Below, piece after piece: positions 1,876 through 12,810 of a stretch of 26,322 nucleotides of DNA. Source of the DNA: Candidatus Hermodarchaeota archaeon (GTDB lineage: Archaea > Asgardarchaeota > Thorarchaeia > Thorarchaeales > Thorarchaeaceae); the NCBI GenBank assembly GCA_048885865.1, contig JBHLLF010000032.1, forward strand, positions 2,836-29,157. The letters are read 5' to 3'. Within the stretch, counting starts at the first letter, position 1; each line of letters opens with the position of its first letter. A program made the position numbers and the translations under genes. A model generated the notes under the pieces. It was not told where the DNA came from, made no database searches, and was given only the letters and a program-made list of their open reading frames with translations.

Positions 1876-2014
1876 GAGCTCAAAGAGAGCAGTCACTAAG
1901 TCAGCGTGCTAGAGTAAATGATTGTTATTTCGCAATTTCCTGAATTCACGAAGTTTATGTGTATGCGGAGTATGTGAATTCCGGTATTCGTATTGGCTTT
2001 GGAGGAAGACGCAC

Positions 2015-4546
2015 TTGAAGCGGCTGCTCATAGTATTGGCTATTGGAATTGCTCTCTTCTTGTCAGGGAACACAAGTAATGTAGTGCAAGTTGCTCCAAA
2101 ATTGCCTGATGTGTCTTCATTTATCTTGGCCCAAGAACCGATTGGAATAAACTTCACTTCACCAGTGTCAAGCGAACATCTGTCAGGGAACATCACAATT
2201 AAGGTGAATGCAACCGTGATCGCTGGTGCAAGTGTGATGCTAAGGTGGCATAGTGATTCCTGGATTAACATCACGGATTTGTACAACTCAACTTCCCGAC
2301 TATACGAGTATCCAATGGATGTATCTTGCTTACCGAGCGGAAACACAACTTTCGAAGTCAAACAAGTGACCTCGCATGGAACAGCCCAAGCGGCTGTTGA
2401 AGCCAATATCGACTGGGAACGACCTCCAATCCTCATTGTTGATGACTATGACAACACAACTGTCACCAGCTACTACACAGATGCACTTGAGGGGCTTGGA
2501 CTCTCTAATGGTTCAGATTATAATGTGTGGCGAATACAGGTTTCTGGTTCACCAGATGACACGGACTTGCTTGACTATCAATTTGTGATTTGGTTTACCA
2601 GTGATCATGGAAACCCACTCTCTCTAGACGAGCGAAATGTCATTCAGACATATCTCATGGACGCTGCTGATAGAAAGATGCTGCTGACAGGCACTGAAAT
2701 AGCGTGGAGTGCCTACAACGTCGGTTTCTTCGAAGGGTGGCTCAGCAGCAATTTCGGAGTCAATGACTACATTGGAGATGGCAGCAATTCGGAAACCCTC
2801 GTGGGAAGTGTCGGAGGCCCATATGCCGACGTTAGCTATACCTACGGAGGCGGAGATGGCTCTAGGGCTGGAGGCGGGGCTGATTGGGTCAGAACTATGG
2901 AATTCAGCATGGGAATGATAGAGTATCAAAGCAGCGGATATGATGAGTATGCGGCGACATCCTCCCCATTTGCAAACGGTGTTTTCTTTGGATTTGCGTT
3001 CGATGCGATTTCAAACTCATCTGGCCGATTGGACCTAATGAATAGAACGCTATCCTATCTTAATGTGTATGATTCACCCAGTGTGAATATAGTAGCTCCC
3101 ATTAGTGGTAGTCTTGAGAGGGCACAAGTGGATCTTGAATGGAGCTCATACTCGCCCATTCCTGGAGCATTCTATAATCCCTCCTATAACATCTTTATTG
3201 ATGGGCAAGAATATGTCTCCGAGGTGTCTTCAGAAACATATTCTGTCGCACTAGAAAATGGAAACCACACTGTCCGAATAGTCTGTGAAGACAACTATGG
3301 GCAGCGTGGATACGCCAATGTTTCGATCGAGTGTGATGCAATTTACCCTCAAATTGAAGCGTTAAACCATGCCCCAGGCTCTGTGCTTCAGAGCAATACG
3401 CTGATTGTATTTGAGATCATTGAGGATCATTTTGATACCGCACTAGCACGGTGGAGCACTGGCAGTTGGGTCACATTCATGCCTCCATTTGAAACAGTGC
3501 TTCCTTCAGGCAATGGAAATCATGCGTTCTACATCATTGCATTTGACCTGGCTGGAAATATGAATAGCACTGAATTCACCTTCACTTGTGATGATGTGTT
3601 TCCAGACATTGCCCTAGTGGATATGGTGAATGGTTCGGTTCTGTCCAGCAACGCCCCTATTAGCTTTGAAATCAATGATACACATTTTGACAAGGCAGAG
3701 TATCATTGGGATCTTGATGATTCCACTGAATTCGTCTTTCCGTTCGAGGTCTCAATGCCTACTGGCGATGGCATTCACGACCTATATGTCAGTGCAACTG
3801 ATGTTGCTGGCAATCAGAGAGTAAATCATTACCAGTTCATCACAGACGACGTGGCACCATCTTTTTCACTGATGAACATGGCAAACGGCACGATTCTGAG
3901 GTCAGGTTCACCTATGAGTCTAAGAGTCTCAGACCTACACTTTGAAAGCGCGAGTTACCGCTGGGACTTGGCTGATTCAGGAAGCTTTGACACCAGCGAA
4001 GTAGTACTCTATGCGCCTCCTTTAGAGGGTGAGAACTGGCTATTTGTCAATGCAACTGACACAGCAGGCAATAGAGCTACCACCTCGTTCCTTTTCATAG
4101 TTGATAACACAGCACCAGAAGTCACTCTCACATCTCCGCTGGACGGAAGCACCATCCCAATGAATACGGAAATAGCAATTGAAGTCACTGACCTGTACCT
4201 TGAATCTGTATTTCTTAAGTGGGATTCAGGAGATTGGATTGAGTGTAATTTTCCATATATAGCATATTCACCGGCAGGAGAGGGGAATCATGCTCTCTTT
4301 GTTATTGCCACAGATTATGCAGGAAACAGCAGAATGAATGTCTTCGTATTCATAACCGAAGAAATGTCAACCACATCAGCTACCACAACTTCAACAGCCA
4401 CGACCCCGTCTCCAACAAGTCCAGCAGAACCAAGATTGGATTTGCCTGCGAGCCTTGGGATTATGGGGATTGGCGTTTATCTTGGATTAATCATTGGCAT
4501 ATTCGTCTGGCCGCGATTAAGGGGTAGGAGACCGTCAGTGGGCTAG
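2015..4546 (+). CDS. Secreted, C-terminally membrane-anchored surface protein with Ig-like repeats
   Basis: GGAGG at 2001-2005 before in-frame TTG 2015 gives a signal peptide (LKRLLIVLAIGIALFL). Contains an alpha/beta domain (ILIVDDYD...YNVW...YQFVIWFTSD), four ~85-aa repeats ending AxDxAGN...F..D, a Thr-rich linker, one TM helix and an Arg-rich tail. Confidence 0.8.
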   Translation: MKRLLIVLAIGIALFLSGNTSNVVQVAPKLPDVSSFILAQEPIGINFTSPVSSEHLSGNITIKVNATVIAGASVMLRWHSDSWINITDLYNSTSRLYEYPMDVSCLPSGNTTFEVKQVTSHGTAQAAVEANIDWERPPILIVDDYDNTTVTSYYTDALEGLGLSNGSDYNVWRIQVSGSPDDTDLLDYQFVIWFTSDHGNPLSLDERNVIQTYLMDAADRKMLLTGTEIAWSAYNVGFFEGWLSSNFGVNDYIGDGSNSETLVGSVGGPYADVSYTYGGGDGSRAGGGADWVRTMEFSMGMIEYQSSGYDEYAATSSPFANGVFFGFAFDAISNSSGRLDLMNRTLSYLNVYDSPSVNIVAPISGSLERAQVDLEWSSYSPIPGAFYNPSYNIFIDGQEYVSEVSSETYSVALENGNHTVRIVCEDNYGQRGYANVSIECDAIYPQIEALNHAPGSVLQSNTLIVFEIIEDHFDTALARWSTGSWVTFMPPFETVLPSGNGNHAFYIIAFDLAGNMNSTEFTFTCDDVFPDIALVDMVNGSVLSSNAPISFEINDTHFDKAEYHWDLDDSTEFVFPFEVSMPTGDGIHDLYVSATDVAGNQRVNHYQFITDDVAPSFSLMNMANGTILRSGSPMSLRVSDLHFESASYRWDLADSGSFDTSEVVLYAPPLEGENWLFVNATDTAGNRATTSFLFIVDNTAPEVTLTSPLDGSTIPMNTEIAIEVTDLYLESVFLKWDSGDWIECNFPYIAYSPAGEGNHALFVIATDYAGNSRMNVFVFITEEMSTTSATTTSTATTPSPTSPAEPRLDLPASLGIMGIGVYLGLIIGIFVWPRLRGRRPSVG

Positions 4547-4704
4547 GTTTCTAACTAGATACAAATCCAACCAAAATGTATACTCTGGCGATGTTAGAAC
4601 CCTCGGGTCAGATGGAAGAAGCATTGGCCTATGATAATTAGCATTTTACTTTTGAACGTGCCAATCCATTCTCCACTGGCATTATATGGAACCAATGACA
4701 GACC

Positions 4705-6615
4705 ATGTTAGACCTCAATTTCGAAGCTAGTGATGATGTAATGCCGGGACAAGGAGAAAAAGCCACAAGGGTTAGAAGAACGGGTACATATTATACGCCG
4801 CCAGATCTAGCCTTTGATATAGCGAGTCAAACTCTTGGGGCTTTTCTCAACAGTCATACTGGCAAGCCCCTTGAAGTTGATCCCTTTCTAGACGATCTAA
4901 GTCGCAATTCCAAAAAGGAAATGCTGGACCGCCTTCAAGATATTGCAATTCTGGACCCTGCAGTTGGCGAAGGAGTATTCCTCAAAGGTGCAGCCGAATG
5001 GCTACTGAGAGCACGAAGGTTACTTGGCGATGACCGACCTGCACATAGAGTGAAGTCAGATATCGTGAAACACAATCTATTTGGCGTCGATATCCGCCAA
5101 GATGCAGTTTCCATCTGCTCTGAAACATTGGCATCATGGACTGGTGTGAAGAATACTGAACGACTCAGGAATGAGATTCATAGCAAGAATTTCAAGCATG
5201 GCAATAGTCTAGTTGGCTGGGCGCAGGTTCCAGAGAAATGTAATCGAGCAGATTTGAAGTGCTTTAACGAGGTCATGCTTGATAGATTGAACACCCTGTC
5301 TGAAAGTACTTTGATGCAACTTTTGCCATTTCATTGGCCAGTTGAGTTTGAAGAAATGATGGGCAAGGGGTTGGGATTTGATATAGTGCTAGGCAATCCA
5401 CCTTATGGCAATATTCTATCGAAAGACGAAAAGCGCATTATTAGTAGAACATGGAATATCGATGTCAGCAGAAGTCAAAATGGAACATGGAATGCAGCCG
5501 CTCTTTTCATCGCGAGAGCCCATGACTTGCTTCAGCCCAGAGGTCACTTGGGCTTTCTAATACCTAACAGTGTTCTTAGGACTCGGCAATTCAGACGTGT
5601 GAGAAGATTCCTCCTTGATAACATGCCTCTCTGGATGATTATCGACGAAGGGAGTCCATTTGAAGGTGTCACGCTGGAAATGGTGAGCATCTTCTGCAAT
5701 GCTGGGCAGGAGATTAGCGGCAGGAAAATAAAGGTCGAGTCAAGAAGGCCCGGCATTGATTGGCAGGGAAGTGTACCACTTGGAATTCTGAAATCTAGCA
5801 AGGTCTTTCCAATCTATTATGATGCACTGTTGGAGGGAATACTTGATAGAGCATCCAAAGGATGGGCGAAAGCCCGAAGAGGACGGGATTTATCGAAATC
5901 ACATGTTAGCAAGAAAAGGACAAAGAAGTTTCAAGTCCCTTATGCTACTAGCGGACGAAGCGTAAGGAGATTTCACCTCGATTCCCGATATCTACTCTAC
6001 GCGGATGATACATACACGGAAGATAGGGGACTAAGAGAATCTTACAGAAGCAATCTGCTTGTTGCAACAAAGAACTACCCATTCCCAAGATGCGCAATAA
6101 AACCGTCCGGAGTTATTCATGGTGGAGGAGTAGTGGAGATTATTCCACTTCGGGATGGCATTCTGCTGGAGGCCTTGGGTCTTATTCTCAACTCGAGCAT
6201 AGTGAGATATCTCTGCATCAAGTATCTGACTAATTACTCGATGCTTACAACGTGCCTCAATACAGGAATTATGGAAGAGATACCAATTATTGTACCAAAA
6301 GACCAGACGCTCTTCAAGCAGCTCTTCGAGTCATTACAGGAACTATACCAAGACACCGATTCACAAGCAAAATCAGACCATAGAATTGCATTGCTAGAAC
6401 TAATCACCAACGCTCTTGTCTATGAAATGTATTTGTCGGACTCAACTGACCTCTTAGATGTTGCCTCAGGAGTAATCTCTGAGATCTCTAGGCCAATCGC
6501 TTCAACTAAGCTGGCGAGAGCACTATCAAGACCAGATGTTGCAGAGTCTGTTAGAAGAGTAATGGAAATTGAACTTGTCAGACAAATTGAGGATACGCCA
6601 AGAATGCAGCAGTAG
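4705..6615 (+). CDS. N6-adenine DNA methyltransferase (gamma class, TaqI/Eco57I-MTase-like) with C-terminal target recognition domain
   Basis: Motif X GTYYTP, motif I ILDPAVGEGVFL, LFGVDI, FHWPVEF, motif IV FDIVLGNPPY, LGFLIPNS, and C-terminal LGLILNSSIV typical of TaqI_C-like TRDs. Confidence 0.9.
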   Translation: MLDLNFEASDDVMPGQGEKATRVRRTGTYYTPPDLAFDIASQTLGAFLNSHTGKPLEVDPFLDDLSRNSKKEMLDRLQDIAILDPAVGEGVFLKGAAEWLLRARRLLGDDRPAHRVKSDIVKHNLFGVDIRQDAVSICSETLASWTGVKNTERLRNEIHSKNFKHGNSLVGWAQVPEKCNRADLKCFNEVMLDRLNTLSESTLMQLLPFHWPVEFEEMMGKGLGFDIVLGNPPYGNILSKDEKRIISRTWNIDVSRSQNGTWNAAALFIARAHDLLQPRGHLGFLIPNSVLRTRQFRRVRRFLLDNMPLWMIIDEGSPFEGVTLEMVSIFCNAGQEISGRKIKVESRRPGIDWQGSVPLGILKSSKVFPIYYDALLEGILDRASKGWAKARRGRDLSKSHVSKKRTKKFQVPYATSGRSVRRFHLDSRYLLYADDTYTEDRGLRESYRSNLLVATKNYPFPRCAIKPSGVIHGGGVVEIIPLRDGILLEALGLILNSSIVRYLCIKYLTNYSMLTTCLNTGIMEEIPIIVPKDQTLFKQLFESLQELYQDTDSQAKSDHRIALLELITNALVYEMYLSDSTDLLDVASGVISEISRPIASTKLARALSRPDVAESVRRVMEIELVRQIEDTPRMQQ

Positions 6616-8008: not shown

Positions 8009-8767
8009 TTGGAATTGAATGGAACCGTAGATTTGGAGCGAAGGCGCAGAGGAATGTTCCTCATAGCAGCAGTAGCACTAATCGTGGCTTCCATTATCGT
8101 TTGGTGGGCAAATACTGTCGTGGCAATGCTTGTTCTATTTGCGGCCATGTTCGTAGCCGTGTATACACTATGTAGCATCCCATTGGACCAGCCACCGCCC
8201 GGAGTAAGGCGGAGAAGATGGGATGGGATGTCTGTTGAGAGATTAGATCTACTTGAGCAGCGAATGAGGGAGTCTCTCGAAGAGATAGTGATGATGGAGG
8301 AGGATGAGGAGCCAGAAGAAAGCTACGCCATCCCGGTAGATGAGGCAGATGAAGCGTCCACAGGACTTGAGCATGATATTCCCGTTGAGGTAATTGATGG
8401 GATAGGCAAGGCATACGGAATGAAACTTCGTGAGATTGGAATCACCAATCTGGAAGAACTTGCGCTGTCCAGTCCAGAACGAGTTCAGGAAGCGTGTGAA
8501 GTTACTCTAAATGAGGCAGCAGGATGGGTGGCTGATGCCATTGCTATTTTCATGGGAGCTGGCATGACAAGTGTGCTTGAGCTAGCGATGTCAGATGCTG
8601 AAGAAATCATCAAGAGAATCGAGATGGCATTAGAGAATGGAACCATCCGGGTGCCCGAGGGCCACGAGTTAACTATTTGGAATGCTCGCCACTGGATTAC
8701 GGCAGCTAATGAACACATTATGCTGTCCCCTGAAGATATTCGTCGGTGGGCTGAAGACAATCGTTAA
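8009..8767 (+). CDS. Membrane-anchored helix-hairpin-helix protein (DUF4332-like C-terminal domain)
   Basis: Arg cluster, two N-terminal TM helices, acidic linker, HhH motif IDGIGKAYGMKLREIGITNLEELA, second module AGMTSVLELA...WITAA. AGGAG upstream of the TTG start. Confidence 0.7.
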   Translation: MELNGTVDLERRRRGMFLIAAVALIVASIIVWWANTVVAMLVLFAAMFVAVYTLCSIPLDQPPPGVRRRRWDGMSVERLDLLEQRMRESLEEIVMMEEDEEPEESYAIPVDEADEASTGLEHDIPVEVIDGIGKAYGMKLREIGITNLEELALSSPERVQEACEVTLNEAAGWVADAIAIFMGAGMTSVLELAMSDAEEIIKRIEMALENGTIRVPEGHELTIWNARHWITAANEHIMLSPEDIRRWAEDNR

Positions 8768-10352: not shown

Positions 10353-10421
10353 GGTAATCTTTAAATGCGCAGCCCGAAGTCCATGTACAGTTTTATGATT
10401 CCAGTTCGACTTAGGTGGAGG
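10353..10421 (+). promoter_or_regulatory. Putative TATA box and Shine-Dalgarno for the thermosome gene
   Basis: CTTTAAAT near 10359-10366 and GGTGGAGG at 10414-10421 ahead of TTG 10430. Confidence 0.5.
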
Positions 10422-10429
10422 AACTAGAA

Positions 10430-12067
10430 TTGAGTCAACAAGTACCAGTAATAGTGCTGAAAGAAGGCACAGAAAGATCCCGTGGTCGTGATGCACAGAG
10501 AAACAACATCATGGCTGCAATTGTGATTGCTGAGGCTGTCAAGTCTGCATTAGGCCCCAAGGGTGCTGATAAAATGCTAGTTGATAGCTTTGGTGACGTG
10601 ACTGTATCAAATGATGGTGCAACCATCTTGAAGGAAATGGATGTCGCTCATCCTGCTGCGAAGATGGTGATTGAGGTTGCGAAGACAGTTGATGCAGAGG
10701 TTGGAGATGGCACCACAACGGCTGCTATCCTTACTGGCGATCTGTTGAAGACCGCTGAAGGACTTCTCGACCAGAAGATACATCCGACGACCATCATCAG
10801 TGGATATCGGAAAGCTGCGGATAGGGCACTTGAAATAATAGATGAAGTTGCAGAAGAAGTCGACCCTGAAAGCAGTCAATACAAGAAGATACTCCTCGAT
10901 GTCGCTAGGACTGCCATGTCCAGTAAGTTCGTTTCAACATACCGTGACCAGCTATCAAAGGTAGTTGTGGATGCAGTGCTTGCCATCAACAAGGATCGAG
11001 ACCCAGACGAGGAATTGAACATTGATGACATTCCTCGACAGAAGCAGGAGGGAATGCCGGTAGATGCTACCCAACTTGTGAAGGGTCTTGTCCTGGATAA
11101 GGAAGTAGTACATCCAGGAATGCCAAAGAAAGTTGAGAATGCCAAATTGCTACTTCTTGAGAGCCCCCTAGAAGTACAGAAGACTGAGTTTGATGCAAAG
11201 ATCTCAATCAGTGATCCCACATCGATGCAGAGTTTCCTGGATGAGGAAGAGCGAATGCTCAAGTCCATGGTGGACAAGATTGTCGAGTCCGGTGCAACTG
11301 TCGTTATTGCCCAGAAAGGAATTGACGACGTCGTCCAGCATTTCTTGGCTAAGGAAGGAATCCTAGCAGTGAGGAGAATCAAGAAGTCCGACATAGAGAG
11401 ATTGCATAAAACAACCGGTGCAACAATAGTGTCTAAGATTCAGAACCTCACCAAGGATGACCTTGGAACAGCCAAGCTTGTAGAGCAGAGGACTGTGGGT
11501 GAGGACAAGATGCTCTTTATAGAAGGAACCAAGAAGACATCTGTTGTAACTCTTCTCGTTAGAGGAGGAACAGACCACATTGTGGATGAAGTGGATCGTG
11601 CACTAAATGACGCGCTCTATGTTGTGCGTGATGTGGTAATCCATCCCTACGTTACCTATGGAGGTGGCTCTCTAGCTGGAGAGATTGCCAAGCAATTGCG
11701 AGACTATTCCGAGAAACTCGAGGGACGCGAGCAATATGCAGTAAATGCGTTTGCTGAAGCCATTGAATCATTGCCCAATACTCTCGCTGAAAACGCCGGG
11801 TTAGATCCCATTGATATGATTGTCAATCTCAGAAATGCCCATGCTAATGGCCAGGTGACGTTCGGCATTAATATTGACAAGGGCAAGGTGGATGACATGA
11901 AAAAGGCGAGAGTCATCGAGTCAGCGCTTGTCAACAAGCAGATTGTAATGTCAGCGGCCGAAGCTGCGCAAATGATACTCAAGATAGACGATGTGATCAG
12001 CTCAAAAGGAGCTGGCTTTGGTGCAGGCGGTGCCCCTGGCGGCGATTTCGACGCCGATGAAGATTAG
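10430..12067 (+). CDS. ths: Thermosome subunit (group II chaperonin)
   Basis: LGPKGADKMLVD, NDGATIL, EVGDGTTT, GLVLDKEVVHPGMPK, LVRGG, LAENAGLDP, ILKIDDVI. TTG 10430 has a well-spaced SD; GTG 10415 is the alternative. Confidence 0.97.
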   Translation: MSQQVPVIVLKEGTERSRGRDAQRNNIMAAIVIAEAVKSALGPKGADKMLVDSFGDVTVSNDGATILKEMDVAHPAAKMVIEVAKTVDAEVGDGTTTAAILTGDLLKTAEGLLDQKIHPTTIISGYRKAADRALEIIDEVAEEVDPESSQYKKILLDVARTAMSSKFVSTYRDQLSKVVVDAVLAINKDRDPDEELNIDDIPRQKQEGMPVDATQLVKGLVLDKEVVHPGMPKKVENAKLLLLESPLEVQKTEFDAKISISDPTSMQSFLDEEERMLKSMVDKIVESGATVVIAQKGIDDVVQHFLAKEGILAVRRIKKSDIERLHKTTGATIVSKIQNLTKDDLGTAKLVEQRTVGEDKMLFIEGTKKTSVVTLLVRGGTDHIVDEVDRALNDALYVVRDVVIHPYVTYGGGSLAGEIAKQLRDYSEKLEGREQYAVNAFAEAIESLPNTLAENAGLDPIDMIVNLRNAHANGQVTFGINIDKGKVDDMKKARVIESALVNKQIVMSAAEAAQMILKIDDVISSKGAGFGAGGAPGGDFDADED

Positions 12068-12101
12068 GAAAAGTCAATCACAAGAGAGAGCAGGTGTGCT
12101 T

Positions 12102-12779
12102 ATGTCAGACGACCCAGAGGAAGCGGAAACCGGAACTGAGGAGGAATCTCCTGAGGAATCTGATGCAGAGAAAGCCCAGATCCTCACGAACATTCAATCA
12201 GTGGGACCAAAGAACGCAGAGAAATTGGTCGCTGCTGGATATGATACCATTGACAAGATTGCTTCAGCAGATTCTGAGGAGCTTGCAGCAGCCGTTCCTG
12301 GGGTCAGTACAGCCAAAGCAGTTGATTTCATCACAGCTGCGGTCAAGCTGTTAGAGGCTGTCGAAGCTGGTGAAATCGACCTAACTCGTAAGGGCAAGAA
12401 GTCAAAGCGAAAGAAGGCTCCAGAACCAGATCCTGATATTCATGAGCTTCCTCCCGCTGAGGAGATTGCCCGTGCTGAGATTCGGTTAAGTCTTAAAACG
12501 GGACTTGAAACAGACAAGGCCGCCATGGGTATCCCTATTGGTCCGAAGTGGCTTACCAAATTTGAGAAGGCCAGGATAATCGGTGCACGCGCATTGCAAA
12601 TCTCAATGGGCGCACCAATAATGATCAGTATAAAGACAGCTCCAGGCGAGCTGTTCGCCTTGGCGGAAGCAGAACTCCGAGCACGTATCCTCCCGATGAC
12701 AGTCAGGAGAACACTGCCAACCGGAGAGCATTTTGACATTCCACTCACTCGTCTTTTGGAAAATACGAGGCTCGACTGA
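12102..12779 (+). CDS. rpo6: DNA-directed RNA polymerase subunit Rpo6 (RpoK) with N-terminal acidic tail and HhH domain
   Basis: C-terminal PIGPKWLTKFEKARIIGARALQISMGAP...AEAEL....LPMTVRRTLPTG is the Rpo6/Rpb6 core. N-terminal IQSVGPKNAEKLVAAGYDTIDKIA...LAAAVPGVSTAKA is a double HhH. ATG 12102 follows CAGGTG. Confidence 0.92.
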   Translation: MSDDPEEAETGTEEESPEESDAEKAQILTNIQSVGPKNAEKLVAAGYDTIDKIASADSEELAAAVPGVSTAKAVDFITAAVKLLEAVEAGEIDLTRKGKKSKRKKAPEPDPDIHELPPAEEIARAEIRLSLKTGLETDKAAMGIPIGPKWLTKFEKARIIGARALQISMGAPIMISIKTAPGELFALAEAELRARILPMTVRRTLPTGEHFDIPLTRLLENTRLD

Positions 12780-12810
12780 GGTCAGCCTCGTTTTCTCTTT
12801 TCTTCATTCT
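12765..12810 (+). terminator. Hairpin plus pyrimidine tract ending the ths-rpo6 unit
   Basis: ACGAGGCT(12765-72)/AGCCTCGT(12784-91) plus GAC/GTC stem with the rpo6 stop TGA in the loop, followed by TTTCTCTTTTCTT. Confidence 0.65.

Follow-up and report, generated by a model that had tools for sequence, protein, structure and literature searches.

A helix-hairpin-helix module within the N-terminal tail of RNA polymerase subunit Rpo6 in a family of Thorarchaeota

Introduction

The two hairpins of helix-hairpin-helix (HhH) motifs are usually the face turned towards the DNA backbone, and (HhH)2 domains also pair with each other, as XPF does with ERCC1 and NusA AR2 with the alpha-CTD. The HhH repeats of topoisomerase V (Topo V) have been described as processivity factors (PMC9489208), residue K70 of human RAD51 touches the DNA backbone (PMC10990931), and a single Topo V HhH motif placed on T7 RNA polymerase brought no benefit (PMC12630135). 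The Rpo6/Rpb6/omega protein is a universal subunit of RNA polymerase (RNAP); its eukaryotic tail is involved in TFIIH binding, through p62 (PMC8754651), and in cleft occupancy, where residues 12-35 of yeast Rpb6 lie within the Pol II cleft in pre-initiation complexes and clash with DNA/RNA (PMC9935396). Rpo13 of Sulfolobales binds dsDNA (at about 2 uM) and is built of an E-rich N-terminus, a helical core and a K-rich tail (PMC3479171).

The Rpo6 discussed here belongs to the protein family treated by Shematorova & Shpakovski (2026; PMC13257274), who noted the long charged N-terminal region of Thorarchaeota Rpo6 and its folded helical fragment in AlphaFold3 models, termed the domain 'helix-loop-helix' and cited an HhH fold paper. 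The sequence-only reading of the present locus knew of no functional description of the fusion; the fusion had already been noted in that paper, but under a wrong name and, in its available part, without a survey or functional work. The Rpo6 fusion is, therefore, only partly new. The available part of the same paper contains no mention of restriction to a family, insertion into an older tail or parallel fusions of topoisomerase VI-A (Top6A) and ribosomal protein eL32, and a search of the openly accessible literature (subscription papers lay outside it) for Thorarchaeota with HhH, Top6A extensions and eL32 with HhH returned nothing further. What seems to be new here, judging from sequence comparison, is the insertion of the module into an older tail and the presence of similar HhH modules on Top6A (11/11 genomes) and eL32 (25/32 loci) of the family.

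Results

The rpo6 gene and its neighbourhood

The window is a 26,322-nt stretch of contig JBHLLF010000032.1 of a thorarchaeal genome (G000, 87% complete). The gene at 12102-12779 (+) is read through without an internal stop and encodes a 225-aa protein, the single ORF that had been claimed for it; database homologs of this protein bear the name Thorarchaeota RpoK. The features of the locus, all on the forward strand, are as follows.

10415-12067, +: thermosome subunit gene, upstream neighbour of rpo6 (NCBIfam)
12091-12096, +: Shine-Dalgarno-like CAGGTG preceding the rpo6 start (read from the sequence)
12102-12779, +: Rpo6/RpoK fusion gene, encoding an acidic tip, (HhH)2, basic patch, Pro/acidic linker and Rpo6 core
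12102-12170, +: acidic disordered N-terminal tip, aa 1-23 (12 D/E; pLDDT <50; dN/dS 0.23-0.48)
12171-12365, +: (HhH)2 domain with a RadA-N / Topo V / NusA-AR-like fold, aa 24-88 (Pfam, profile and fold matches)
12366-12458, +: GxxDL cap, basic patch (KSKRKK) and EPEP linker, aa 89-119 (conservation, charge, dN/dS)
12459-12527, +: linker that contains a short helix and runs into the core, aa 120-142 (conserved residues; model helix)
12528-12779, +: Rpo6/RpoK core with Rpb6-type C-terminal beta-finger, aa 143-225 and stop (NCBIfam, Foldseek)
12777-12810, +: short hairpin with oligo-T, candidate terminator 3' of rpo6 (pattern scan, consensus match alone)

The rpo6 start lies 35 nt downstream of the thermosome stop codon, and the gene order thermosome, rpo6, MgtC/DUF4010, hisS is common to the family of the window and its sister family. 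A GGTG, mostly AGGTG, is found a few bases 5' of Met1 in 31/31 loci, the sister family included, and the internal Met142 is replaced by Leu or Lys in 8/30 relatives; these two observations identify Met1 as the start and rule out translation from the internal MGIPIGP, which had been named as a possible objection. Elsewhere in the window, 8009-8767 (+) encodes a protein of 252 aa whose N-terminus is hydrophobic and which has weak HhH_5/DUF4332-like repeats, and an Eco57I/MmeI-like DNA methyltransferase gene (4705-6615, +) adjoins a gene for an 874-aa Ig-like repeat protein (1922-4546).

A 930-nt contig from another run, belonging to the same study as the possible source run, spans 11840-12769, the fusion junction included, with 0 mismatches. 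Together with the 78 intact fusions of the family, this contig rules out an assembly chimera, so that both reads and relatives back the fusion. In a single RNA run, a relative was represented by two contigs of 151 nt (depth 2), neither of which joins the HhH to the core. The fused gene is the only rpo6 match in G000, and no second, short copy, which the sequence-only reading had named as a possible objection, was found in this 87% complete genome; across the family, rpo6 occurs once per genome, except for an extra fragment in G017 ended by a contig edge.

Domain architecture and selection

The protein is a member of the Rpo6/RpoK (Rpb6) family with a RadA/Topo V-type (HhH)2 insertion. The expected core is recognised by Pfam Rpb6 (residues 148-176), NCBIfam RpoK NF002207 (residues 140-224; 84.5 bits, cut-off 71) and NF002208 (69.1, cut-off 57 bits), and a Foldseek search aligned it to Rpb6/Rpo6 chains (E about 1e-4, rmsd about 1.5 over 73 columns). 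The predicted relation of the N-terminal domain to HHH_5/RadA-N was likewise found: Pfam HHH_5 matches residues 27-73 (E 2e-10; 41.4 bits, cut-off 27) and 64/64 homologs, and in NCBIfam residues 28-87 are nearest to the RadA N-domain. Among solved domains, sequence profiles matched Topo V residues 621-681 (E 9e-13), RadA (4e-10), halobacterial eL32 (1e-6), RAD51 (1e-5) and NusA (3e-4), and the best fold matches were NusA AR1 (Z 10.9, rmsd 1.8, 70 aligned), AR2 (Z 9.9) and Rad51 (Z 8.2); the alpha-CTD was not among the 50 fold matches listed.

AlphaFold2 modelling of the whole protein predicted that the tip is disordered and gave a five-helix domain, an extended linker with a helix at residues 134-141, and the core; the pTM of 0.40 agrees with domains that are not fixed relative to each other. 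The isolated N-domain was modelled as a pseudo-twofold five-helix (HhH)2 (mean pLDDT about 75-80), which, with the fold matches, bears out the proposed HhH folding. The (HhH)2 module placed at about residues 28-82 is thus a genuine domain by Pfam and model, but its hairpins are not the canonical G-h-G: in this copy they read S-V-G and then G-V-S. The first hairpin is G-V-G in 85% of homologs, with Ser replacing its first Gly in 16/158 (this copy among them), and the second is G-h-S in all homologs, as in RadA.

The positions G35, P36, K41, G67, S69, K72, G90, D93 and K102-R103-K104 are invariant (the last three scored over 120 homologs), K37 is kept in 98%, and R128, L131, T133 and G134 are conserved in the linker at aa 120-142. 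The basic patch and Pro/acidic linker described before a full Rpo6 core are accordingly present, and the patch (mean net charge +6.5, against -3 for the preceding HhH) is one of the best-conserved regions beyond the core. The HhH is under purifying selection at the level of the core, with dN/dS of 0.03-0.08 for the HhH against 0.04-0.20 in the core; in the basic/Pro stretch 89-119 it is 0.01-0.13. The tip, whose strong acidity was correctly noted (12 D/E in residues 1-23), is the least conserved part (dN/dS 0.23-0.48); it is acidic in 138/158 homologs, basic in some relatives and contains no aromatic residues in this copy.

Distribution and origin of the fusion

A profile built from 64 homologs was searched against 400 Asgard genomes. 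Full single-frame fusions were found in 78 of the 81 rpo6-bearing genomes of the window's Thorarchaeota family, a Thorarchaeaceae-level group, covering 15 genera, while the other 3 were partial; no intact rpo6 without HhH was found among these 81 genomes, and the fusion is not a one-genome artefact. Outside the family, the profile scored the core alone (E 1e-40 in the sister-family genome G001; 5e-30 or weaker in about 280 other Asgard genomes), and no HhH on Rpo6 was present among the matches listed for these genomes, a result that a very divergent HhH could escape. A few fused sequences labelled 'Hodarchaeota', 'Lokiarchaeota' or 'TA06' look like misbinned Thorarchaeota; the one examined, a record binned with the bacterial TA06, has the Thor gene order and 83% core identity. 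Two short public Thorarchaeota Rpo6 records (L206 and L207, 82-84 aa) reflect a wrong start call, with the HhH in frame upstream; one truncated record of this kind is binned as TA06.

The Rpo6 of G001, the one genome representing the sister family, is 153 aa long and has an acidic tip and a basic patch without HhH; four more sequences of this type are known. When these are aligned with the fused proteins, the HhH falls between the tip and the patch, so that the simplest history is an insertion: the ancestor of the family seems to have placed the (HhH)2 module in an acidic/basic N-terminal tail that it already had, the polarity being deduced from this comparison. A few Rpo6 carry HhH and basic patch twice, as in the tandemly duplicated variants of 320-325 aa at L208:1305-2282 (+) and in P0019 and P0021. 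Most HhH modules of the family share a one-residue insertion relative to RadA, which also occurs in a Topo V repeat, and stand apart from RadA in a quick tree of 62 columns (SH-aLRT 81), most forks of which are unsettled. The RadA of the genome itself does not have this insertion, so direct copying of its N-domain is not supported.

HhH modules on other proteins of the family

Close HhH modules are also present in G000 on eL32 at its N-terminus, on Top6A in two copies and on a membrane protein at its C-terminus. In 11/11 family genomes Top6A has 2-7 copies, against none in 19 other Asgard genomes. On eL32, 25/32 family loci have 1-4 copies, and 27 other Asgard genomes have none. The sister-family genome G001 contains none of the three fusions (Rpo6, Top6A, eL32). 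In several genera, eL32 has no HhH, with a Lys-rich extension alone in some, though Rpo6 keeps it, and the mean net charge of the Top6A copies is +3 versus -3 for those of Rpo6. Rpo6 is the most constant case of a family-wide adding of HhH modules and not a polymerase one-off.

The genes concerned vary in architecture. Top6A of G000 (L038:2802-4955, +; G000:C2) is 717 aa long and combines a Lys-rich arm with two (HhH)2 modules, and eL32 (L039:2397-3233, +; G000:C4) has an N-terminal (HhH)2 and a Lys-rich linker that recalls halobacterial eL32. The eS25 of this genome (L167; G000:C52:5316-6275, +) has a long histone-H1-like Lys-rich repeat tail, whereas two database eS25 close to it (P0142, P0152) have two C-terminal HhH modules instead. 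A 538-aa multi-pass membrane protein (L040:2000-3613, -; G000:C26), found also in G003, ends in a (HhH)2 of the same type, and a HEAT-repeat protein (L035:1187-2572, +; G077:C76) is joined to this HhH type as well.

Discussion

Proposed role of the Rpo6 arm

The reading that we favour, with a probability of roughly 0.55, is that the Rpo6 arm tethers nucleic acid weakly and non-specifically, in the manner of Sulfolobus Rpo13. The Rpo6 core would enter RNAP as usual, as its homology suggests, and the HhH with the adjacent invariant Lys/Arg patch would hang on a tether of about 45 residues. They could hold the backbone of a nucleic acid weakly and with no preference for sequence; duplex DNA close to the cleft is the most probable ligand, and nascent RNA a possible one. 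The template would then stay bound for longer and transcription become more processive, an effect that Rpo13 has in Sulfolobus. The binding may be tuned by the acidic tip, or the tip may compete with it, and the arm may be one case of HhH and Lys-rich arms acquired family-wide by nucleic-acid machines (Top6A, eL32 and some eS25).

Several observations argue for such a tether. The closest solved sequence relatives are DNA-binding (HhH)2 domains, namely Topo V 621-681 and the RadA/Rad51 N-domains, and the Topo V repeats have a processivity role (PMC9489208). K72 aligns with human RAD51 K70, in a register taken from the end-points of the profile match, and the invariant residues lie at the two hairpins, while the basic patch is among the most conserved non-core parts. 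The variable copy number (Top6A 2-7, eL32 1-4, two in some Rpo6) fits avidity better than a fixed stoichiometric dock. With an offset of 66 residues, yeast Rpb6 12-35 corresponds to residues 78-101 of the fused Rpo6; since the tail of yeast Rpb6 enters the cleft at the same distance in sequence (PMC9935396), the tether is expected to be of sufficient length. On the other hand, the nucleic-acid reading is weakened by the net acidic charge of the Rpo6 HhH (-3) next to the basic Top6A copies (+3), by the protein-binding NusA acidic repeats ranking ahead of Rad51 as fold matches, by the Ser at the first hairpin Gly of this copy and by the lack of any gain when T7 RNA polymerase received one HhH motif (PMC12630135).

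The site used by Rpo13 may already be taken, because the Rpo5 of Thorarchaeia has an Rpb5-like jaw domain, a domain stated to be absent from all archaea (PMC3479171). The long Rpo5 form is class-wide and duplicated in many genomes; G000 has two tandem genes of about 185 aa each (L170:3512-4066 and 4172-4729, +; G000:C25), with no rpoB/rpoA adjoining, and the N-terminal domain of both proteins aligns to the eukaryotic Rpb5 jaw. When the HhH plus basic patch was paired with the long Rpo5, complex prediction gave a score of 0.00, which counts neither for nor against contact.

Alternative explanations

The main rival, a serious though clearly less probable one, treats the HhH as a protein dock like NusA AR1/AR2, bound to TFE, Spt4/5, archaeal NusA, aCPSF1 or the polymerase surface, with the patch alone touching nucleic acid. 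The leading fold matches to NusA AR1 (Z 10.9, rmsd 1.8 over 70) and AR2 (Z 9.9), the acidity of the domain, a copy number on Rpo6 that is almost always one, and the binding of TFIIH p62 by the eukaryotic RPB6 tail (PMC8754651) are all in keeping with it, as are the extra Rpo6-Rpo5 and Rpo6-RID contacts in AlphaFold3 models in the available part of PMC13257274; but Z differences between small helical domains say nothing firm on function, the sequence likeness to the NusA repeats (E 3e-4) is far weaker than that to Topo V or RadA, and the invariant residues gather at the two hairpins, the usual DNA-backbone face. Acidity would also suit a damper, in which tip and HhH fill the empty cleft, block non-productive binding or aid assembly or storage. 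Yeast Rpb6 12-35 offers a precedent for cleft occupancy (PMC9935396), the tip is acidic in 138/158 homologs and a thermosome gene precedes rpo6 in both families; however, no part is less conserved than the tip, some relatives have a basic one, and selection is strongest on the basic patch and hairpins, which makes this role improbable.

The recurrence of the module suggests two further explanations. HhH arms on RNAP, the ribosome (eL32, eS25) and Top6 might bind one another, or all attach to one scaffold, for instance chromatin; if true, transcription in an Asgard archaeon would be physically linked both to translation and to the removal of supercoils. Such coupling would be consistent with the finding of the Rpo6, Top6A and eL32 fusions only in this family, and not in G001, with the shared one-residue insertion and the separation of the modules from RadA (SH-aLRT 81), with the complementary charges of the Rpo6 and Top6A copies and with the mutual pairing known for (HhH)2 domains. 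Yet eL32 lacks the HhH in several genera whose Rpo6 keeps it, copy numbers vary freely, the tree of 62 columns gives weak support and a Topo V repeat has the same insertion; moreover, with one genome for the sister family, the co-gain counts as one event and not as independent evidence. We consider this coupling slightly less probable even than a damper. Least probable of all, and by our estimate very improbable, is that a promiscuous module was fixed by drift and is kept merely folded: its scatter over unrelated proteins, a membrane protein included, and its disappearance from eL32 in some genera would suit a neutral passenger, but no intact family rpo6 without HhH was found, the dN/dS of the HhH is as low as that of the core, and the surface lysines and the basic patch are invariant. 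The broader pattern of one module added to three core machines of a single family may be of greater interest than the Rpo6 arm itself.

Comparison with known systems

Of the interpretation first put forward for the locus, the conserved, flexibly tethered (HhH)2 on a polymerase subunit stands, while the alpha-CTD-like arm and the kinship to the Rpb6 tail are not supported. The bacterial alpha-CTD belongs to the same fold class and is tethered to the transcription complex, but its UP-element and activator binding is not known for the Rpo6 HhH. RNA_pol_A_CTD was not among the Pfam families matched by the 64 homologs at E 0.001, and membership in the alpha-CTD family is not supported; similar HhH on Top6A, eL32 and some eS25 also argue against a dedicated alpha-CTD-like activator arm. 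NusA AR1/AR2 share the fold class and the tethering, give the best structural scores and are acidic like the Rpo6 HhH (mean -3), but differ in their low sequence likeness (E 3e-4, far below Topo V and RadA) and in the host protein, here Rpo6. Methanopyrus Topo V, the RadA/Rad51 N-domain and halobacterial eL32 are the closest sequence relatives, with common hairpin motifs and a lysine matching RAD51 K70; they have other hosts, and the Rpo6 HhH is single-copy, net acidic and followed by an invariant basic patch.

The best functional analogue of the Rpo6 arm is probably Rpo13, also a lineage-restricted RNAP addition with an acidic N-terminus, helical core and Lys-rich segment, for which non-specific dsDNA binding is a property of its own (PMC3479171). 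It differs as a separate subunit of unrelated fold, docked between Rpo5 and Rpo1, whereas the HhH is fused to Rpo6; no Rpo13 family occurred among the Pfam matches of the 64 homologs and no Rpo13 chain among the PDB sequence matches listed, so homology is not supported and the likeness is one of function only. The sequence-only reading stated that archaeal RNAP has no alpha-CTD equivalent; a tethered arm that binds DNA non-specifically does have a precedent there, namely Rpo13 (PMC3479171).

Archaeal Rpo6/RpoK and eukaryotic Rpb6 (RPABC2) share the core sequence and fold, the Rpb6-type C-terminal finger and an acidic disordered N-terminus. The likeness to the Rpb6 tail proposed from the initial MSD is weak, as MSD opens 47/158 homologs and the tip is variable (dN/dS 0.23-0.48), basic in some relatives and without aromatic residues in this copy. 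The tip is also of low complexity, Rpb6 sequence matches to the fused Rpo6 begin at residue 108 or later, no conserved sequence likeness between the tails was seen, and kinship between them is not supported. A fusion that is lineage-specific and absent from the other Asgard groups searched offers no explanation of the eukaryotic tail. A folded HhH domain was found on no other Rpo6/Rpb6 examined and is, in this comparison, a feature of this Thorarchaeota family alone; as a folded, strongly conserved domain on an Asgard Rpo6, it shows how polymerase tails gain function.
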